This document shows, in pieces, positions 8,569 through 19,328 of a stretch of 64,000 bases of DNA; the stretch's first letter is position 1, and each line of letters opens with the position of its first letter. The DNA lies in the NCBI GenBank assembly GCA_964599625.1, contig CAZRGC010000005.1, positions 10,462 to 74,461 of the forward strand, written 5' to 3'. The notes under the pieces were generated by a model. The model worked only from the letters and a program-made list of their open reading frames with translations. It was not told the origin of the DNA and did not search any database. This stretch comes from an uncultured Gammaproteobacteria bacterium (lineage in GTDB: Bacteria; Patescibacteriota; Microgenomatia; UBA8517). A program made the position numbers and the translations under genes.

Positions 8569-9219
8569 TTAATGTCTTTCGTGCCCGTGATGGTGGTGAT
8601 GGTGGTGTTTGTGTTCACTTTTAGAAGCTTCCGCCTCTTTGGAAACTCTCATTACACCAATACCCAACTCTAAAAAGGCCAAGTCTGCGTTTTGAATAAG
8701 TTCTTCTTTAGATCCTTCATTCCAAATTGTCCTATCAGCCAGCTCAAGACATTTGTCCACCTGCATTGCAGTGGAACCTTCTTCTCCTCTCTCTCTTTCA
8801 AGCATCTTTATAAATTCTTCAAATGTTTCGGGGTCTCCCGGGCGCTTCCTTTCTTTCATTCTTTTAAAAAGCGTTTCAGGACTTGCCGTGATTCCAATTA
8901 CTTTTGCATCAAAAAAGTCTTTAAGAAAAGTTATTTCATCGGGGTGTCTTATGCTGTCAATCACGACTAAATCGGCGTGTTTGAACTCATTTTTGGCAAC
9001 AGTCATTCTTGCCAAAATGTCAGCACCTTCTTTTGCTCTCATATCATCACCAAGGTTCTGAAGCACTTCGCGTTTATGTGACCATCCATATTTTGTAGCA
9101 ACTTCACGCAAGATGTCCGAAAGCGAAAAATAAGTAAATCCTTGGCCAACCAAATACTTGCTTATTTCCCCTTTTCCGCCGGACCCTGGTCCTGTAAAAC
9201 CAATTATCACTCTTTCCAT
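8569..9219 (-). CDS. P-loop NTPase, adenylate-kinase-like nucleotide kinase with native His-rich C-terminus
   Basis: Walker A GFTGPGSGGKGE resembles AK GxPGxGKGT; C-terminal KSEHKHHHHHHHGHERH. Confidence 0.55.
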   Translation of the reverse strand: MERVIIGFTGPGSGGKGEISKYLVGQGFTYFSLSDILREVATKYGWSHKREVLQNLGDDMRAKEGADILARMTVAKNEFKHADLVVIDSIRHPDEITFLKDFFDAKVIGITASPETLFKRMKERKRPGDPETFEEFIKMLERERGEEGSTAMQVDKCLELADRTIWNEGSKEELIQNADLAFLELGIGVMRVSKEAEASKSEHKHHHHHHHGHERH

Positions 9220-9275
9220 CTATGCTCTTTGTATAACAAGGAGGCTTGACTTGGTCAATATCCATATTTTTTGCC

Positions 9276-9312
9276 AAAAAAAACCGCCAGGTCTTTCGTA
9301 AAAAACCTGGCG
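9276..9312 (-). terminator. intrinsic terminator of the Ubl operon (CCGCCAGGT...ACCTGGCGG + U8)
   Basis: perfect 9-bp stem, A8 run on plus strand = U8 on minus strand, 30 nt after Ubl stop. Confidence 0.7.
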
Positions 9313-9341
9313 GAATTACCAACAAAACGATCAGAAACCGG

Positions 9342-9584
9342 TTACTTCCGGCCGCCCTCAACGAGGGGGATCAGGAAGATGCTGTCGCCGTTGCGGACAG
9401 TGGCGGTATCCCAGTCGTCCTCGGGGATGACTGCTTCGTTGCGCTCGACAGTGTTGACGTCATCGAGTGAGAAGCCGGCCGCTTCGACCGCTTCGCGCAA
9501 ATTCATGGCGTCACCTTCAAAGGTGTACTGCTTGGTATCGCCGTCCGAGAGGTCGGCAACCGTAATCGTGCTTTTTCGTGCCAT
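9342..9584 (-). CDS. ubiquitin-like / MoaD-ThiS-like beta-grasp protein ending LVEGG-RK (2-residue extension after di-Gly)
   Basis: 80 aa from ATG at 9584 with SD AAGGAG; ORF-track start at 9626 is a TTG; C-terminus GGRK; adjacent E1 and JAB genes; visibly GC-richer than neighbours. Confidence 0.65.
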   Translation of the reverse strand: MARKSTITVADLSDGDTKQYTFEGDAMNLREAVEAAGFSLDDVNTVERNEAVIPEDDWDTATVRNGDSIFLIPLVEGGRK

Positions 9585-9641
9585 CGTAGGCTCCTTGAAA
9601 AAAGTTGGGAATGTAATGTACTGCAATCTTACTTGCAGCGC

Positions 9642-10310
9642 CTATTCTACCATCATGCGGAATCTTTTCAAATCCACTGTTATGGCTTTAGGCAATGAAC
9701 CCGGATCTGTAAGAAAAGTTTTGACAACTTCGCCAACAACACCGGCACAGTTCATGACTGTGTAAAAAATAGCCGCTTGGGTGCAAACGGCATTGTGGAC
9801 TTTCACCTTGCGGAAAAGTTTTTCCTCGTATGCCTCCACCCGGATTTTGTCGCCCATTGGAATGGGGTAAATCTGATAAAGCTCTCCCGCCATCCTGGTT
9901 TCCACATACAAAGGAATGTGTTTGGAGCTCTTTCTTACCCCGCGCCAAATGTCTTGTCTGCCTTCGATCGAATGAACCGCACTCACAACAATTCCGTTAA
10001 GAGCTGTTGGTGCATGGTAATCTTTGGCAAATGGCGTTGCCTGGACAGTGGTGAATTCCATTAGATTTGTCGCCAAAGACTCTGCCTTTCCCTTACCAAG
10101 TTGAGATAACTTGAAAAACTGGTTGGGCAAATTATGGCTTTCGATCTTGTCGCTGTCCCAAATGGAAAGAATGTCCACACCCATCTTGGCAAGTGTGAAT
10201 CCGATCGGAGACCCCAGGCCGCCTGCACCAATCAAAACAAACGGATATTTGTTCAGGATTTGGGGAGGCAAAAGGCCCATCTGTCTCGTAAAGTTCAAGC
10301 GTTTTCCCAT
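9642..10310 (-). CDS. minimal ThiF/MoeB/E1-like adenylyltransferase (222 aa)
   Basis: Rossmann motif VLIGAGGLGSPIGFTLAKMGV and WDSDKIESHNLPNQFF (DxDxVExSNLxRQ-like); SD AGGAGG; candidate Cys in CTQAAIFYTVMNC. Confidence 0.8.
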   Translation of the reverse strand: MGKRLNFTRQMGLLPPQILNKYPFVLIGAGGLGSPIGFTLAKMGVDILSIWDSDKIESHNLPNQFFKLSQLGKGKAESLATNLMEFTTVQATPFAKDYHAPTALNGIVVSAVHSIEGRQDIWRGVRKSSKHIPLYVETRMAGELYQIYPIPMGDKIRVEAYEEKLFRKVKVHNAVCTQAAIFYTVMNCAGVVGEVVKTFLTDPGSLPKAITVDLKRFRMMVE

Positions 10311-10849
10311 TCAACCTCCTGTTTCGAAGATGGTTTGTAAACGACCTTCTCAGCAACTTCCTTTTCCAACTCTGCGCGCGTAAAGATTACTTCGTCTTTG
10401 CCCGTGTAGGTGTAAATCGTGAAGTTAAAAACGGAAAAGGGTTCGGGTTTTTGGATGTCGTACCGGGTCGCGAAATGTCCCTCTTTATTCCCCACAATTG
10501 AAAACAGTGGATATTTTTGGGACATCCGTTTGATTGTCTCGTCATCCTTGTCGCGCGACCAACCAACTTGGAAAACTCCATGGCTATGCCACCAAAGGCG
10601 GAAAGCCGAAAGAGGAATGCCTTTGCCAACCATCTCACGCACAAAGGCGGAGTGGCCCAATGGGTCAAAAGTGGTCAGAATATCTGTTGCGGTCTGTTTA
10701 ATAAGATAAAGATTGCGCACGTAGTGCACACCTTCAACCTCCTCAATATGACCCAGCCCACTAATCTCGCCTTTGGCAATGTCGATGTAGGTAAACCACT
10801 TTTCAAAAACAGTCTCCGGCATATAGACTACCGGTAAATAATCTTCCAT
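10295..10849 (-). CDS. JAB/MPN (JAMM) metallopeptidase
   Basis: Glu in GLGHIEE plus WWHSHGVFQVGWSRDKD (HxH-x7-S-x-D); 16-nt overlap with E1 gene; SD AAGGAG. Confidence 0.7.
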   Translation of the reverse strand: MEDYLPVVYMPETVFEKWFTYIDIAKGEISGLGHIEEVEGVHYVRNLYLIKQTATDILTTFDPLGHSAFVREMVGKGIPLSAFRLWWHSHGVFQVGWSRDKDDETIKRMSQKYPLFSIVGNKEGHFATRYDIQKPEPFSVFNFTIYTYTGKDEVIFTRAELEKEVAEKVVYKPSSKQEVEWENA

Positions 10850-10858
10850 ACCATCTCC

Positions 10859-11761
10859 TTATGATTCTCTTGCGAAAATCATCATCGACTCTGCGGCAAG
10901 GGCCAGTTCCTTCTTTTTCAAAAACTGGCTGACACCGTGGTGAATATTCCCCAAACAAAGTCCACCGCAGGAATATACATGTTCATGCTTTCCTTGATAT
11001 GCAGGGGATAAATAAAAAACCTGCACAAACGCGCTTTCATCCCAGTCGTTGGGGCGCATCACCACCAGTATCTCTCCAATGTTGACTTTGTTTTGGTCAC
11101 CACCAGATTCTCTGTACTGTGTTTTGCCCAAGCTAAACCTGATTTCATCTTCAGTTACAATCAGTTCGCCCTTGGATATCTTGTAGATATAGTCGTATTG
11201 CTTCTTGATCTGGGCATTGCTGAAATGGGTGCGTCTGAAAAAGGTCTGGAAGTTCTTGAACGATGCGCTTCTGAGATCTTGACGCTTTTTTCCTTCGATC
11301 ATTAACCTCTCTTCAAAGCCAGGAATTTTTTCATAGGCATCAAGAATGCGTTTAAGGACAAGGAGGGCTTTTTGCTTCTCATCGTCCTCGTAGACTGGAA
11401 GGTCAAAAGGTATGTAGATTGTGTTTCCCACCACCTCGGCCACCACGTTTTCGTCATTGTCCGTGATCGGATAACCTATGAGAGATGTTTGGACTCCTTC
11501 CCTTTGTGAATAGAGAAGTTCTACTCCGAACGCTTCGACAATTGAATTTTCGGAAGCGTTAGAAAATGGCCCAACCGAAGCGGAACGCCGGAAATAGATA
11601 TCCAGCCTGTTTTTGCGCATGTTTGGAATGCCAAAATCGGGTCGATCGAAGTCGTCATCCCCTATATGCACTGCATGAATATTGATCTTCCATCGTATTG
11701 CGTAAACCTGAAGAATCAACTTAATTTCTTCTTCAAGTCCTTCTACTTCAACTGTGTTCAT
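10859..11761 (-). CDS. protein with C-terminal UBC/E2-like active-site signature (300 aa from ATG 11761)
   Basis: HEHVYSCGGLCLGNIHHG matches E2 HPN-x7-C spacing and G-x-[IL]-C-L-x-[IN]-[IL]; N-terminal 240 aa unassigned; ORF-track start 11818 is TTG. Confidence 0.45.
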   Translation of the reverse strand: MNTVEVEGLEEEIKLILQVYAIRWKINIHAVHIGDDDFDRPDFGIPNMRKNRLDIYFRRSASVGPFSNASENSIVEAFGVELLYSQREGVQTSLIGYPITDNDENVVAEVVGNTIYIPFDLPVYEDDEKQKALLVLKRILDAYEKIPGFEERLMIEGKKRQDLRSASFKNFQTFFRRTHFSNAQIKKQYDYIYKISKGELIVTEDEIRFSLGKTQYRESGGDQNKVNIGEILVVMRPNDWDESAFVQVFYLSPAYQGKHEHVYSCGGLCLGNIHHGVSQFLKKKELALAAESMMIFARES

Positions 11762-11876
11762 ACTATCCTTTCCACGAAGTAGTCGTGATTTCGTTAAAAT
11801 TTCAAAGTTCAAAACCAAAAAACCAACTTGGGGATTTTATCATATCTCATAGTAAGCGGCAACTAAGCAAGGTGTG

Positions 11877-13079
11877 TTATTTGTCCTGCTGAAGTTGTTT
11901 GAGGCCCATCACTCTCAAGTAATCACGATCAAAAGCTGCCACTAATGACTCTTTGGAAGAAAGCGGTCCGGGTTTTAGAAACCTAGTGCCTGCGCCTTTC
12001 TGCACTCTTGCGCAAATATCCAAAAAGTCCTGCTTGTTGGTTAGGTCCCAAAAATCCACAGCATCCTTGGGGTTGTAGCCAGGAGACTTGGCAGCGTCTT
12101 TCCTAAAAAGCCATCTACTTATTATTTTTGTTTTGTTCTCAGATATGGGAACTATCAAGTCATAGTTGACATAATCCGGATGCACTCCCAAAAGAAGCAT
12201 TCCCGGAGAAAATGAATATGCGTAAAGCCGCTTAACCTCGTCCTCCTTAAAATCCCCCAAAAGGGGTGCGCAAAACTCGCCGGAGATTGTAAGGTCATCA
12301 TATCCTTCTTTAACAAGCATATACCCACCCAAAACCGGCCCTTCTGTAACATCGTTGAACCAGGATTTGTAACCGGAAACCCTTATCAACTGAGGATGCT
12401 TTGTAGGACAATGATCACACTCTTCATAGTTTTCAAAAATTATTTTCCAATTTGCAGGGATATTGTTATAAACAATTTCTGCTCCCAACTCTAGCTCCCC
12501 TAATCCGTATTTATCCAAATCTGTCGGCAGATAAGGAAATGCCTCTTCAAAATTCATTGGTCTATTCGGGTCAACATTAATAAATATAAAACCGTTCCAC
12601 ACATGAACTGCAGACTCCTGAATGCAAAGCTCTTCCCTTTCAAACCCTTCGGTTTCTTCCAATGCCATGGCATTAATTACTTTTCCATTTTTATCAAAGG
12701 TGATGCTGTGATAATCGCACTGAATAACCTTGTTCAACTTCTTTTCTTCTTTTTCTTCTGTTATTTCGACGTCCCTATGCCCGTGATTTTCATCGTGTGG
12801 ATCTTCCATCAAACGGATATTTCGGTGTGGGCAAACATTATGCAGTGCCTTAACACCTCCGTCTTCACCTCTAAAAACTATTATGCTTTCGCCGTCAATT
12901 TCATACAAAAAATAATTATCGGGATTGGGTATGTCGCTTACATGCCCAACACAAATGGGGTTTTCATAAATGAACTTTTCTTTTTCTTTTTGGAAAATCA
13001 CCTCGGAGGTGTAAAACTCACCACTCAATACTCGCGAACCCTTCACAAACGTCTCCTGTGTTCTTTTTGCTTCCGTCAT
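11877..13079 (-). CDS. Rieske [2Fe-2S] domain non-heme iron oxygenase-like protein
   Basis: Rieske boxes VCPHR and QCDYH (unusually long His-rich spacer DPHDENHGH); candidate mononuclear Fe site EECDHCPTKH. Confidence 0.55.
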   Translation of the reverse strand: MTEAKRTQETFVKGSRVLSGEFYTSEVIFQKEKEKFIYENPICVGHVSDIPNPDNYFLYEIDGESIIVFRGEDGGVKALHNVCPHRNIRLMEDPHDENHGHRDVEITEEKEEKKLNKVIQCDYHSITFDKNGKVINAMALEETEGFEREELCIQESAVHVWNGFIFINVDPNRPMNFEEAFPYLPTDLDKYGLGELELGAEIVYNNIPANWKIIFENYEECDHCPTKHPQLIRVSGYKSWFNDVTEGPVLGGYMLVKEGYDDLTISGEFCAPLLGDFKEDEVKRLYAYSFSPGMLLLGVHPDYVNYDLIVPISENKTKIISRWLFRKDAAKSPGYNPKDAVDFWDLTNKQDFLDICARVQKGAGTRFLKPGPLSSKESLVAAFDRDYLRVMGLKQLQQDK

Positions 13080-13115
13080 GTGCCGATTGTAACAAAAATT
13101 TTCTAATAAAGTAGG

Positions 13116-13988
13116 TCATCTTGGGCCTTCGTCTCTACTACGAAGTTCGTCGCTTATCATAGCTCTCACAATACCTTGGACCTCCTCCCTTGTTATGGGA
13201 ATATAAATTTTTTTAAGCTCACCTAAATACTTTGCATAAGCTTTTTCTGGGGATTCCTGAGGACGCATTGATTTCACACCAATATCATTCATGGAAACAA
13301 TATCAACTTGCTCGGGAAGCTCGGCCTCAAGGTCAAGACCTTGAATAATTCCGCGATACTGAGGTTTCATCCCATTTACCAACTTCCAAAGATTTCTTTT
13401 AAATCCTTCAAATTGCTTTTCACCTATTCCACCTTTAACTTTTGCGTCTAGTGCCCCTACAATTTTGGCAACTCTTTTACCCGAGACTGAATCTGTCTTT
13501 ATATCAATTAGTAAAGCGTCAGGATTCTCCACCGGCCTTGTTCCAGGAAAAAGATTCAGACTATACGTTAAATTATCCATATTTTCGCCATATTCACCGT
13601 TCTCGTCAGGCACTGGAAGCGGGTCCCCTTCCAAATTCATTTCGCTCTGGCTAAAAAAATCGATGTCTCTATATTTATTAGACATCAGAACTCTCTGCAA
13701 AAAATCTGCCAAAGCTCTGTTTTCTGGGTTATGAGTAAGTCTTGTGTAATAATAATTAAGGGCTATCTCCTCAAAAACAAACCCGGAAACACTTCCAAAC
13801 ACGTCGGGTGCTTCCAAAGCATCTTTTCCATGATTTTCTATACGGTTGTGGATATATGTTTTTACACCTTGATACCTGTCACTTGCATAAAATTCCTGGA
13901 CCAGTTCATCTTTGAGCCTATTCCTCTCGGTAAGCGCTTTATTTTCTACTTTTTCCCCAACCGGAAATCCTTCGCCAACTCCTTCCAT
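13116..13988 (-). CDS. hypothetical protein (290 aa), first gene of the Ubl operon
   Basis: 36-nt gap to Rieske gene, same strand; no recognisable motif. Confidence 0.5.
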   Translation of the reverse strand: MEGVGEGFPVGEKVENKALTERNRLKDELVQEFYASDRYQGVKTYIHNRIENHGKDALEAPDVFGSVSGFVFEEIALNYYYTRLTHNPENRALADFLQRVLMSNKYRDIDFFSQSEMNLEGDPLPVPDENGEYGENMDNLTYSLNLFPGTRPVENPDALLIDIKTDSVSGKRVAKIVGALDAKVKGGIGEKQFEGFKRNLWKLVNGMKPQYRGIIQGLDLEAELPEQVDIVSMNDIGVKSMRPQESPEKAYAKYLGELKKIYIPITREEVQGIVRAMISDELRSRDEGPR

Positions 13989-15153: not shown

Positions 15154-15459
15154 CTAGGCTTCGCGAGCGAGCGGGTAGCGCAACTTCCGCGCACCGACTT
15201 CGACAGGCAGGTCGGAAACAAGGCTACCGATGACGTGCATTTTTTCGATAGTACCGTCACACACCCAGGTCACATGCAAGATCTCGCCGCCGGGCAAGAC
15301 CAGATTGTCAGCTTCCTTGAGCTGTTCGAGGTCAACGACGTAATCGTCGCCACCGCAATAGCCCCAGGTGAACTTCAGATCGTCGCCGACGATCTCGTGG
15401 GCGCGCAAAGCGTTTTCGAGCGTGTCTTCGTCAAACGGGGTCAACACACGAGTGTTCAT
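15154..15459 (-). CDS. hypothetical protein (101 aa), GC-rich
   Basis: ORF; composition differs from neighbours. Confidence 0.4.
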   Translation of the reverse strand: MNTRVLTPFDEDTLENALRAHEIVGDDLKFTWGYCGGDDYVVDLEQLKEADNLVLPGGEILHVTWVCDGTIEKMHVIGSLVSDLPVEVGARKLRYPLAREA

Positions 15460-15741: not shown

Positions 15742-15814
15742 GGCCCTATCGTCTAGTGGCCTAGGACACGGGGTTTTCAGCCCTGTAACCTGGGTTCGAA
15801 TCCCAGTGGGGTCA
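15742..15814 (+). tRNA. tRNA-Glu (anticodon TTC)
   Basis: acceptor GGCCCTA/TGGGGTC (2 GU), D-arm GTCT-AGTGGCCTA-GGAC, anticodon loop TTTTCAG, T-arm CTGGG-TTCGAAT-CCCAG; no encoded CCA. Confidence 0.85.
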
Positions 15815-15831
15815 CTCAAAAAATCATTGGA

Positions 15832-15895
15832 GGGCCCATAACAACCTTGCTTCGCAAGAACGTTGTGGTGCCCGCTTGATGACTCGCGGGCCCAT
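15832..15895 (+). other. structured spacer bounded by GGGCCCAT repeats (third copy starts tRNA-Lys); internal hairpin ACAACCTTGC-ttc-GCAAGaacGTTGT
   Basis: GGGCCCATA at 15832, 15888 and 15928; possible tRNA remnant or processed spacer RNA. Confidence 0.3.
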
Positions 15896-15927
15896 AAGCA
15901 AAGCTTGTGTGCCACAGACAGTTACAT

Positions 15928-15999
15928 GGGCCCATAGCTCAATGGTAGAGCAACACCCTTTTAAGGTGATGGTTACAGGTTCGAGTCCTGTTGGGCTCA
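15928..15999 (+). tRNA. tRNA-Lys (anticodon TTT)
   Basis: acceptor GGGCCCA/TGGGCTC, D-arm GCTC-AATGGTA-GAGC, anticodon loop CTTTTAA, T-arm ACAGG-TTCGAGT-CCTGT. Confidence 0.85.
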
Positions 16000-16063
16000 C
16001 TCGCGTACGCTCCCTCTCCCACCACTCTTTGATAGTGCTTTTAAGGATAAATGTTTTGCGCAT

Positions 16064-19257: not shown

Positions 19258-19328
19258 TGGGGGATCGTCTAATGGTAGGACAGCAGCCTTTGGAGCTGTG
19301 AATTGGGGTTCGAATCCCTGTCCCCCAG
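19258..19328 (+). tRNA. tRNA-Gln (anticodon TTG)
   Basis: acceptor TGGGGGA/TCCCCCA (U1-A72 typical of bacterial tRNA-Gln), D-arm GTCT-AATGGTA-GGAC, anticodon loop CTTTGGA, T-arm TGGGG-TTCGAAT-CCCTG. Confidence 0.85.

Follow-up and report, generated by a model that had tools for sequence, protein, structure and literature searches.

Layout of the locus

The window, a stretch of 64,000 nucleotides of contig CAZRGC010000005.1 (assembly GCA_964599625.1), carries six open reading frames (ORFs) that all lie on the minus strand, run in the same direction and span positions 13988-9342. The last four encode an E2-like protein, a JAMM/MPN+ (JAB) metallopeptidase, a minimal E1 and a ubiquitin-like protein (Ubl), and probably constitute a four-gene Ubl conjugation cassette with its own promoter at about 11840 and its own terminator at about 9300; the two genes upstream, for a 290-aa protein and a Rieske oxygenase, would not be components of it. 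The features are:

13116-13988, minus strand: ORF of the 290-aa protein, no family match
11877-13079, minus strand: Rieske oxygenase alpha subunit (Pfam Rieske 3e-16, Ring_hydroxyl_A 1.5e-26)
11762-11876, minus strand: leader/promoter region of the cassette, -10 element conserved across loci
10859-11761, minus strand: E2-like protein, 300 aa, UBC-fold C-terminal domain, C-terminal end ...GKHEHVYSCGGLCLGNI
10295-10849, minus strand: JAMM/MPN+ metallopeptidase, 184 aa (E28, H88, H90, S98, D102)
9642-10310, minus strand: minimal E1, 222 aa (Pfam ThiF 4.5e-14)
9342-9584, minus strand: Ubl, 80 aa, ending LVEGG-RK (Pfam ThiS 1e-07)
9274..9313, minus strand: intrinsic terminator (13-bp stem, 4-nt loop, T8)

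An earlier sequence-only reading of this DNA had listed six co-directional genes closed by a terminator, together with their characteristic motifs, all of which are present. Its hairpin at 9276..9312 was recovered as a 13-bp stem at 9313..9284, with seven GC pairs and followed by TTTTTTTTGG, 29 nt past the Ubl stop codon; the 16-nt overlap that it described between the JAMM and E1 genes is likewise there.

The E2-like protein contains a UBC-fold domain

As a single sequence, the 300-aa E2-like protein has no significant match in Pfam, NCBIfam, PADLOC or PHROGs, and neither Pfam UQ_con nor Prok-E2 matches it above threshold. A word-indexed search returned only five close homologues; an exhaustive profile search collected 165 cluster representatives at E ≤ 0.001, which share an N-terminal module, repeated in some of them, and a C-terminal module. 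Among these relatives, five proteins of 650-1070 aa (P0033, P0052, P0074, P0082 and P0134) have two or three tandem N-terminal alpha/beta modules.

The equivalent of C269 and the Gly two residues after it are invariant in all 127 sequences that cover the C-terminal module. The family consensus reads HPH[VI]xxxGxxCLGN, with HEH or HDH in the clade of the window protein, whose own motif is H259-E-H261-x7-C269-L-G-N. Of the UBC active-site motif HPN-x7-Cys put forward in the sequence-only reading, the spacing, the first His and the Cys are kept, and the position of the Asn is a His in 114 of 127 family members. The Cys that is conserved is C269 (GGLC) and not C265 (SCGG). The positions that follow it vary (S, A or E at 274; E, D or S at 275), with no conserved His among them.

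An AlphaFold2 model calculated from a 72-sequence alignment (predicted local distance difference test, pLDDT, 93.3; predicted template modelling score, pTM, 0.91) replaced one built from the five close homologues, which was unusable (pLDDT 61). It divides the protein into an alpha/beta domain (aa 1-145), long helices (aa 126-173) and a UBC-fold domain (aa 178-300). In the latter a helix is followed by a beta-meander, the loop that carries H259, H261 and C269, and two further helices, which agrees with the order of elements expected of a UBC fold (helix 1, a meander of four strands, a loop, the active-site Cys, then helices 2 and 3). When the C-domain profile was compared by hhalign with four human E2s, whose sequences were entered by hand, the probability was 92% (E 6e-7, 119 columns), and the alignment paired HEH259-261 with HPN75-77 and C269 with C85 of UBE2D2; the controls (N-domain, reversed C-domain and JAB family) scored at most 0.3%. 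UQ_con is the Pfam family matched by most of the 72 relatives, yet it is matched by just four of them and weakly (best E 0.028). Foldseek of the model against the PDB gave nothing significant (best E 5e-3, TM <0.3), and against BFVD a single unnamed match at 7e-4. The structural test proposed with the sequence-only reading thus came out in favour of a UBC fold by topology and by the C269/C85 pairing, and without support from Foldseek. Given the hhalign alignment with its clean controls, the AlphaFold2 topology and the weak UQ_con matches, we conclude that the C-terminal domain is a UBC-fold domain with a conserved active-site Cys, belonging to a family that lies outside Pfam, NCBIfam, PADLOC and PHROGs.

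The minimal E1, the JAMM peptidase and the Ubl

The 222-aa protein proved, as predicted, to be a ThiF/MoeB-type E1 (Pfam ThiF 4.5e-14, 52.6 bits against a cutoff of 28.1), with the motifs GAGGLGS and DSDKIESHNL; ThiF is also its best NCBIfam match. It consists of a single adenylation domain, with no inactive adenylation domain (IAD), CYS domain or rhodanese domain. Searched against the PDB, the family profile matches Uba5 (3.8e-17) and ThiF (5.5e-17), and the protein also gives weak matches to the PADLOC models of the E1-E2 proteins of CBASS (cyclic oligonucleotide-based antiphage signalling system), over residues 19-97 only, and to the NCBIfam 6A-MBL cap2_3 model. G28, G30, D52, D54, N60, Q64, K75, R118, R139 and C176 are invariant in a 29-member alignment; the conserved adenylation site comprises the Arg finger R9, G28/G30/G33, D52, D54, K75, R118 and R139. 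C176, found just before the last long helix in all 44 E1 sequences that cover the position, is a candidate catalytic crossover-loop Cys, which by motif comparison we take to correspond to MoeB C187, ThiF C184 and the catalytic Cys of Uba5. Position 113 (codon at window positions 9972-9974) is Asp in 45 of 47 sequences, aligning with the Asp of Uba5 'VDNFEAR', and is His only in the lineage of the window, L001 and L114. The His113-bearing E1 gene is nevertheless under strong purifying selection.

In an alignment of 33 JAMM family members from related loci, E28, Q52, H88, H90, S98 and D102 are the sole invariant columns and, Q52 apart, make up the JAMM motif E...H-x-H-x7-S-x2-D. The JAMM/MPN+ assignment of the sequence-only reading holds for E28...H88-S-H90-x7-S98, and its S-x-D ending has to be corrected: owing to a one-residue insertion, the window protein has S-x3-D in place of the usual S-x2-D, the family-invariant Asp being D102. 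By itself, the window sequence matches nothing in Pfam, NCBIfam, PADLOC or PHROGs, and single JAB sequences score under the Pfam Prok-JAB cutoff. The family profile, searched against the PDB, finds as its top match 6fjv ('26S proteasome regulatory subunit N11-like protein', 1.5e-12), presumably the Caldiarchaeum enzyme, followed by Rpn11/PSMD14 (5e-12) and, lower, by CSN5 (4.5e-8), archaeal JAMM1 (2e-6), BRCC36 and AMSH; it matches Rpn11-type deubiquitinases, and Prok-JAB models do not match. A phmmer search of the JAB protein against the PDB gave collagenase matches only, which were judged spurious.

The Ubl matches Pfam ThiS (1e-07, 32.8 bits against a cutoff of 22.5), as it does in NCBIfam, and ends, as had been read from its sequence, in LVEGGRK (G77 G78 R79 K80). 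Its orthologues end in GG-RK, GG-QK, GG-KK, GG-KS or GG-EK. Across 24 loci, one of them with a tandem version, the family is alignable as beta-grasp proteins of 68-98 aa that end in [KE]-G-[GAN] plus zero to three residues; the di-Gly expected in homologues is accordingly kept in the form of a C-terminal G-[GAN].

The cassette is a module separate from the Rieske and 290-aa genes

All E2-like homologues begin at MNTVEVEG, so that the gap to the Rieske gene measures 115 nt rather than the 58 nt given in the sequence-only reading, according to which a promoter in this gap would speak against a link with the Rieske gene. In substance such a promoter is present, as a conserved extended -10 within the 115 nt. 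A putative -35 element (TTGCCG, 11862-11857) precedes the extended -10 TG-n-TAAAAT at 11842-11834 (promoter-like match 11862..11834), downstream of which follow a conserved GAACTTTGAAAT element and a GGAAAGG ribosome-binding site. The extended -10 (TGATAAAAT) and the GAACTTTGAAAT element are invariant across six loci, with no change in TG.TAAAATCCC or GAAC.TTGAAAT; the six include L003, where the upstream neighbour is the divergent methyltransferase and not the Rieske gene. Moreover, the 115-nt region is 98% identical to that of L114 despite diverged coding regions on both sides. The promoter assignment is based on this cross-locus conservation and not on the scan score, since a promoter scan by itself was not above chance (6 sites against 9.3 expected). 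Between the Rieske gene and the E2-like gene the minus strand shows no terminator-like site, and there may be read-through from the former into the cassette. Just past the -10, a direct repeat TTTGAAC/TTTGAAA (11790-11815, minus strand), also invariant in the six loci, may be a regulator-binding site.

Gene orders in related loci are listed below; contigs that are short show just part of the order in their row, and for L003, whose contig stops just after the Ubl gene, the upstream side alone is informative.

Window, L001, L006, L113, L114: divergent methyltransferase, 290-aa gene, Rieske, E2-like-JAB-E1-Ubl, kinase, p80, p144, p157, M50
L109: methyltransferase, Rieske (65% identity), kinase, p80, p144; cassette and 290-aa gene both absent
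L111: 269-aa gene, Rieske (61% identity), kinase; cassette absent
L110: Rieske in an unrelated context
L117: methyltransferase, E2-like-JAB-E1-Ubl, Rieske (41% identity), kinase, ..., M50; cassette on the other side of Rieske
L116, L003: methyltransferase, then directly the cassette

In a distant locus (L007), an E2-like gene (425 aa), JAB, E1 and a tandem Ubl stand among Fic, AAA_15/21, NYN and HTH genes. The synteny of the Rieske gene across relatives, suggested earlier as a check, is not maintained: its position relative to the cassette changes, and often there is no Rieske gene. L109, L116 and L117 have no 290-aa gene, and in L003 none lies between methyltransferase and cassette; neither the Rieske gene nor the 290-aa gene has a homologue near any of more than 30 viral or metagenomic cassettes. 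The nearest solved relative of the Rieske protein is the carnitine monooxygenase CntA (2.3e-32) and its nearest NCBIfam model is GbcA, far under that model's cutoff; it is thus closest to the CntA, GbcA and Stc2-type quaternary-amine monooxygenases, which are ordinary catabolic enzymes. The 290-aa protein matches nothing in Pfam, NCBIfam, PADLOC, PHROGs or the PDB. Its identity to the L001 orthologue is only 46%, compared with 82-87% for the flanking genes. Because Rieske orthologues occur without the cassette, the two switch sides in L117, viral cassettes lack a Rieske gene and the cassette has its own promoter, the Rieske gene appears to be a neighbour only; we take both it and the 290-aa gene as resident chromosomal neighbours, and the idea in the sequence-only reading that they might be parts of the system is not supported.

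The cassette also differs in composition, its GC content of 46.7% exceeding both the window mean (41.9%) and its two flanks (about 40-41%). Within it, the Ubl gene reaches 58.8%, with a GC content at third codon positions (GC3) of 0.74, and is indeed GC-richer than its neighbours, as had been remarked. Gene orders, promoter conservation and this shift in GC together identify the cassette as a mobile four-gene module with its own promoter, inserted in a conserved chromosomal neighbourhood.

The surroundings of the cassette are cellular: PilB/PilC, a P-type ATPase, an ATP-dependent ligase, GDH, NAPRTase, thioredoxin reductase and agmatinase are encoded in the window, which is therefore part of a cellular chromosome. 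The AAA_17/AAA_18 kinase-like gene downstream of the cassette (8569-9219, minus strand), whose product has a natural His-rich tail (SEHKHHHHHHHGHERH), is conserved next to the Rieske gene in those relatives that lack the cassette. A second small GC-rich ORF (15154-15459, minus strand; 101 aa, GC 57%, GC3 0.72, no family match) lies immediately past the divergent methyltransferase and, like the Ubl gene, stands out from a background of about 40% GC. An Rfam scan of the window found three tRNAs only: tRNA-Gln at 19258 and, on the plus strand at a distance of 0.7 kb from the methyltransferase, tRNA-Glu(TTC) and tRNA-Lys(TTT) (15742-16000). ORFs called across these tRNAs are spurious.

Selection and divergence

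All four cassette genes, including that of the His113 E1, are maintained by purifying selection, given ratios of non-synonymous to synonymous substitution rates (dN/dS) of 0.05-0.15: 0.07 for the E2-like gene against L114, 0.05 for JAB against L115, and 0.077 and 0.145 for E1 and Ubl, respectively, against L001. Amino-acid identity to L001 is 53% for the E2-like protein, 49% for JAB, 77% for E1 and 84% for Ubl, the flanking genes being at 82-87%; the faster change of the presumed specificity components (E2-like and JAMM) is compatible with a conflict-related role. Over the clade of the E2-like family that carries the cassette, E2-like identity spans 34-90%.

Between the window and L114, which comes from another sample, a 5.6-kb stretch is identical at the nucleotide level apart from two patches. 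One covers the Rieske gene (13050-11860; about 87% identical, synonymous divergence, dS, 0.73, 97% identity at the amino-acid level) and the other the part of the E2-like gene that encodes the N-terminal half (11757-11060; 74-92% identity); the intergenic DNA that separates the two patches is 98% identical. This pattern looks like strain-level recombination or allelic mosaicism.

Distribution of the cassette

A scan with the E1 alignment detected 32 loci in IMG/VR, on viral contigs as long as 175 kb, plus a further metagenome set; a scan of genome contigs gave one short contig, labelled Nitrospiraceae. Local hidden Markov models locate the E2-like-JAB-E1 triad in most of the viral loci, and the triad or the tetrad is present in most of the 32 IMG/VR loci as well as in L001, L003, L006, L007, L009, L011, L014, L018, L116 and L117. 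A small Ubl that terminates in G-[GAN] adjoins the cassette, immediately upstream or downstream, in at least 20 loci. The genes for E1, JAB and Ubl, whose synteny the sequence-only reading had anticipated, and that for the E2-like protein strictly co-occur, standing together in every relative examined.

The viral cassettes are found beside genes for DnaB, primase/helicase, SSB, ERF, SbcC and exonuclease, as well as RNR, RadC, DUF932, DNA methylase, RtcB and endolysin; BLAST clustering of the neighbours of about 40 cassettes revealed no fifth conserved gene. One IMG/VR contig (L096, 1067-8607) carries the JAB-E1 pair twice, in one case along with an E2-like gene; each pair has a small Ubl of its own, ending in KGN and SGGSF, respectively.

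The Flavobacterium FpV4 group, with a JAB(423 aa)-E1 pair, is the sole group of cultured phages that shows one, and a viral E2-like protein searched by tblastn against cultured phages gave no match. In Flavobacterium phage FpV4 itself (L108; KT876724.1, 58974-69483), the 423-aa JAB-domain protein is followed by a 228-aa E1, beside toprim and uracil-DNA glycosylase genes; the 420-aa protein encoded upstream, in which an HSH...FCIGS motif occurs, is possibly a diverged E2-like protein. The E1 of this group is annotated 'thiamine biosynthesis protein ThiF', and phage E1 copies with this label are likely misannotations.

Proposed mechanism and alternative explanations

A syntenic unit of four proteins that includes a UBC-fold partner with an invariant Cys, and a Ubl that keeps its G-[GAN] tail, argues for conjugation rather than sulfur carriage, in line with the protein conjugation proposed in the sequence-only reading. 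The JAMM peptidase would remove Arg-Lys from the C-terminus of the Ubl, exposing Gly78, which the 222-aa E1 would then adenylate; this enzyme is probably homodimeric, as are ThiF, MoeB and Uba5. Invariant Cys176 in the putative crossover loop of the E1 would take the Ubl as a thioester and hand it on to Cys269 in the UBC-fold domain of the E2-like protein, whose variable N-terminal alpha/beta domain and helical linker may select the acceptor. There is no E3 in the cassette, and the JAMM enzyme might also reverse the modification.

Several observations weigh against this scheme. Each of its chemical steps is a prediction made from sequence, and so are the dimeric state of the E1, the thioester intermediates and the kind of target. 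No member of the E2-like family reaches significance for Pfam UQ_con (best 0.028), and the human E2 sequences of the hhalign comparison were entered by hand; HEH or HPH replaces HPN, so that the catalytic Asn of canonical E2s is missing, and the H-x-H...C motif could be a metal site. His113 falls at a Mg2+-binding Asp, and in the lineage of the window adenylation may be weakened or changed. The Ubl is ThiS-like, which from sequence alone makes a sulfur-carrier role possible. As regards distribution, the description 'mostly viral' depends on the IMG/VR classification, and among cultured phages the JAB-E1 pair is seen in the FpV4 group only.

A system of the ThiS/MoaD, CysO-Mec+ or QbsE-QbsD type, in which the Ubl carries sulfur and the E2-like protein is a non-catalytic adaptor, would agree with the best matches of the Ubl (ThiS, in Pfam and NCBIfam) and of the E1 (ThiF, in NCBIfam), with a GG plus two-residue tail beside a JAB gene, which is the established CysO/QbsE pattern, and with a conserved Cys176 that presumably corresponds to ThiF C184 and MoeB C187. 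It is unlikely, however, given that the E1 has no rhodanese domain, that neither the cassette nor, recurrently, the vicinity of about 40 such loci contains a sulfurtransferase, cysteine desulfurase or sulfur-accepting enzyme (ThiG, MoaE, CysM-type, rhodanese and desulfurase genes), that there is always a UBC-fold partner, whose Cys at the catalytic position of E2s is invariant, and that the JAB protein is Rpn11/CSN5-like, does not match Prok-JAB models and is found in the context of phage replication modules. Lower still is the probability that the cassette is an inactive relic, a phage-derived unit stranded on the chromosome whose E1 lost adenylation through the change of Asp113 to His. Substitution at a Mg-binding Asp, foreign composition and a family found mainly on viral contigs fit such a history; on the other side stand four intact genes under purifying selection (dN/dS 0.05-0.15), a promoter, ribosome-binding site and terminator that are conserved, and retention of the cassette over the clade with 34-90% E2-like identity. 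His113 itself is common to the window and L001, whose E1s remain 77% identical despite saturated synonymous change.

By synteny, a functional operon of six genes, with the Rieske and 290-aa proteins as effector, target or tailoring enzymes of a pathway that uses the Ubl as a carrier, is largely refuted, and we consider it highly improbable. All six genes are co-directional without a terminator-like site on the minus strand ahead of the E2-like gene, the arrangement is kept in L001, L006, L113 and L114, and Rieske adjoins the cassette in L117 too, though on the other side. That relative position nonetheless varies between lineages; L109 and L111 have the Rieske gene with the same methyltransferase or kinase flanks but no cassette, and L110 has it in an unrelated context; the 290-aa gene is missing from L109, L116, L117 and the methyltransferase-cassette interval of L003; over 30 viral or metagenomic cassettes do without homologues of either; a conserved promoter of its own and a different GC content set the cassette apart; and the closest relatives of the Rieske protein are catabolic quaternary-amine monooxygenases. 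The least probable of the alternatives is that the cassette is a diverged member of a described antiphage family, be it Bil I/II, Bub/6E or type II CBASS Cap2/Cap3. Its four activities are those of BilABCD, many viral loci have the Bil order Ubl-E2-JAB-E1, and the E1 weakly matches the PADLOC CBASS E1-E2 and NCBIfam cap2_3 models. The Bil E1, however, consists of IAD-AAD-CYS domains (PMC11601596), against a single 222-aa domain here, and Bil-type E2s have a conserved His after the Cys, with no classical His before it in the 6d group (PMC1779556, PMC10557695), whereas in the cassette H-x-H precedes the Cys and no conserved His follows. Bub systems form Ser/Tyr oxyesters and comprise a DUF6527 serine protease and fused Ubl-E2, JAB-E1 or E2-E1 proteins (PMC11601596); in the cassette both Cys are invariant and there is no DUF6527. 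Nor is there a CD-NTase, and PADLOC models miss the E2-like protein, JAB and Ubl. The Bil/Bub membership considered in the sequence-only reading is not supported, on account of the E1 without IAD and CYS domains, the different E2 motif and the absence of DUF6527.

Significance

The cassette is most likely an undescribed compact Ubl-conjugation system; the searchable literature, which leaves subscription-only surveys of the E2 fold and E1 superfamily (for example from the Aravind laboratory) outside its coverage, contains no description of it. As for its role, virus-host conflict, either as defence or as a domesticated phage function, seems the most likely one, a guess that we hold at a little under even and that derives from the viral-contig family, the foreign GC content and the fast evolution of the E2-like and JAMM proteins. 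More tentatively, the locus may be a chromosomal representative of a primarily phage-encoded four-component pathway that tags host or phage proteins in early infection and was captured by small-genome bacteria.

If this is true, it would be the first complete cascade of E1, E2, deubiquitinase and Ubl on prokaryotic viruses, with enzymes nearer to the eukaryotic and archaeal toolkit than known bacterial ones (a His-x-x...Cys E2, an Rpn11-like JAMM and a Uba5-like E1). With CBASS Cap2, Bil and Bub, bacterial Ubl conjugation has reportedly only lately been shown to be real and antiviral, and the cases so far are, to our knowledge, all host-encoded. To these the cassette would add a much smaller version, with a 222-aa E1, an 80-aa Ubl and no E3, and its prevalence on viral contigs beside replication genes raises the possibility of ubiquitin-style tagging run by phages. 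Four short proteins would also provide a minimal model of E1-to-E2 transfer that can be reconstituted, and natural variants are on offer: an E2 with HPH where HPN is usual and, in the window, an E1 whose Mg-binding Asp is replaced by His. The cassette belongs to the known class of prokaryotic Ubl conjugation operons, and its viral prevalence is the unexpected part.

Comparison with known systems

Uba5, the best solved match of the E1 profile (3.8e-17), is a short E1 that forms homodimers and has a crossover-loop catalytic Cys; its substrate UFM1 is made with a two-residue C-terminal extension past the Gly that needs trimming. The likeness covers the adenylation domain only, ThiF being near-equal at 5.5e-17. 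Unlike the Uba5-UFM1 pathway, the cassette has no UFC1-type E2 or UFL1 E3, and trimming would be performed by a JAMM metalloprotease instead of a Cys protease. Like CysO-Mec+ and QbsE-QbsD, it combines a beta-grasp protein whose GG is masked by extra residues with JAB and ThiF-like neighbours; unlike them, it has an E2-like protein and no sulfur-transfer or biosynthetic partner. It differs from type II CBASS in its separate E1 and E2-like genes and the absence of a nucleotidyltransferase from the locus, and from Bub in showing no oxyester-type loss of Cys, no fused proteins and no DUF6527 in the six proteins and flanks scanned. Of the NCBIfam PRTRC models, TIGR03736 scores 28.9 bits against a cutoff of 144.75, and the other PRTRC A-F models give no match.

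The SAMP/UbaA/HvJAMM1 system of archaea and the TtuB/TtuC system of Thermus operate without an E2 and also act as sulfur carriers (PMC4443979, PMC4895103). They share with the cassette a ThiS/MoaD-like Ubl with a C-terminal di-Gly, a MoeB/ThiF-like single-domain E1 and a JAMM protease for processing and deconjugation; a UBC-fold protein with an invariant Cys as an obligatory partner sets the cassette apart. The Caldiarchaeum subterraneum ubiquitin operon, which encodes ubiquitin, E1, E2, a RING E3 and an Rpn11-like protein (PMC3082918, PMC5654768), resembles it in bringing Ubl, E1, E2 and JAMM together and in the His at the HPN position of the E2. In contrast to that operon, the cassette has no RING E3, its Ubl is ThiS-like, its E1 is much smaller and its E2-like protein has a non-UBC N-terminal domain.

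With BilABCD (PMC10557695, PMC11601596), finally, it shares four separate proteins (Ubl, E2, JAB/JAMM and E1) and the lack of an E3, a Ubl whose Gly is followed by a short non-conserved tail that the JAB protein is expected to remove, and conserved E1 and E2 Cys residues that would imply thioesters. It departs from BilABCD in its E1, a single 222-aa domain with a putative crossover-loop Cys and neither an inactive adenylation nor a CYS domain; in its E2, with His-x-His in place of HPN, an extra N-terminal alpha/beta domain and a helical linker; and in its ThiS-like Ubl, the absence of PADLOC hits and its occurrence largely on viral contigs. In summary, although the cassette lacks the defining features of Bil, Bub, type II CBASS and PRTRC, it is Bil that it most resembles in the way it works.

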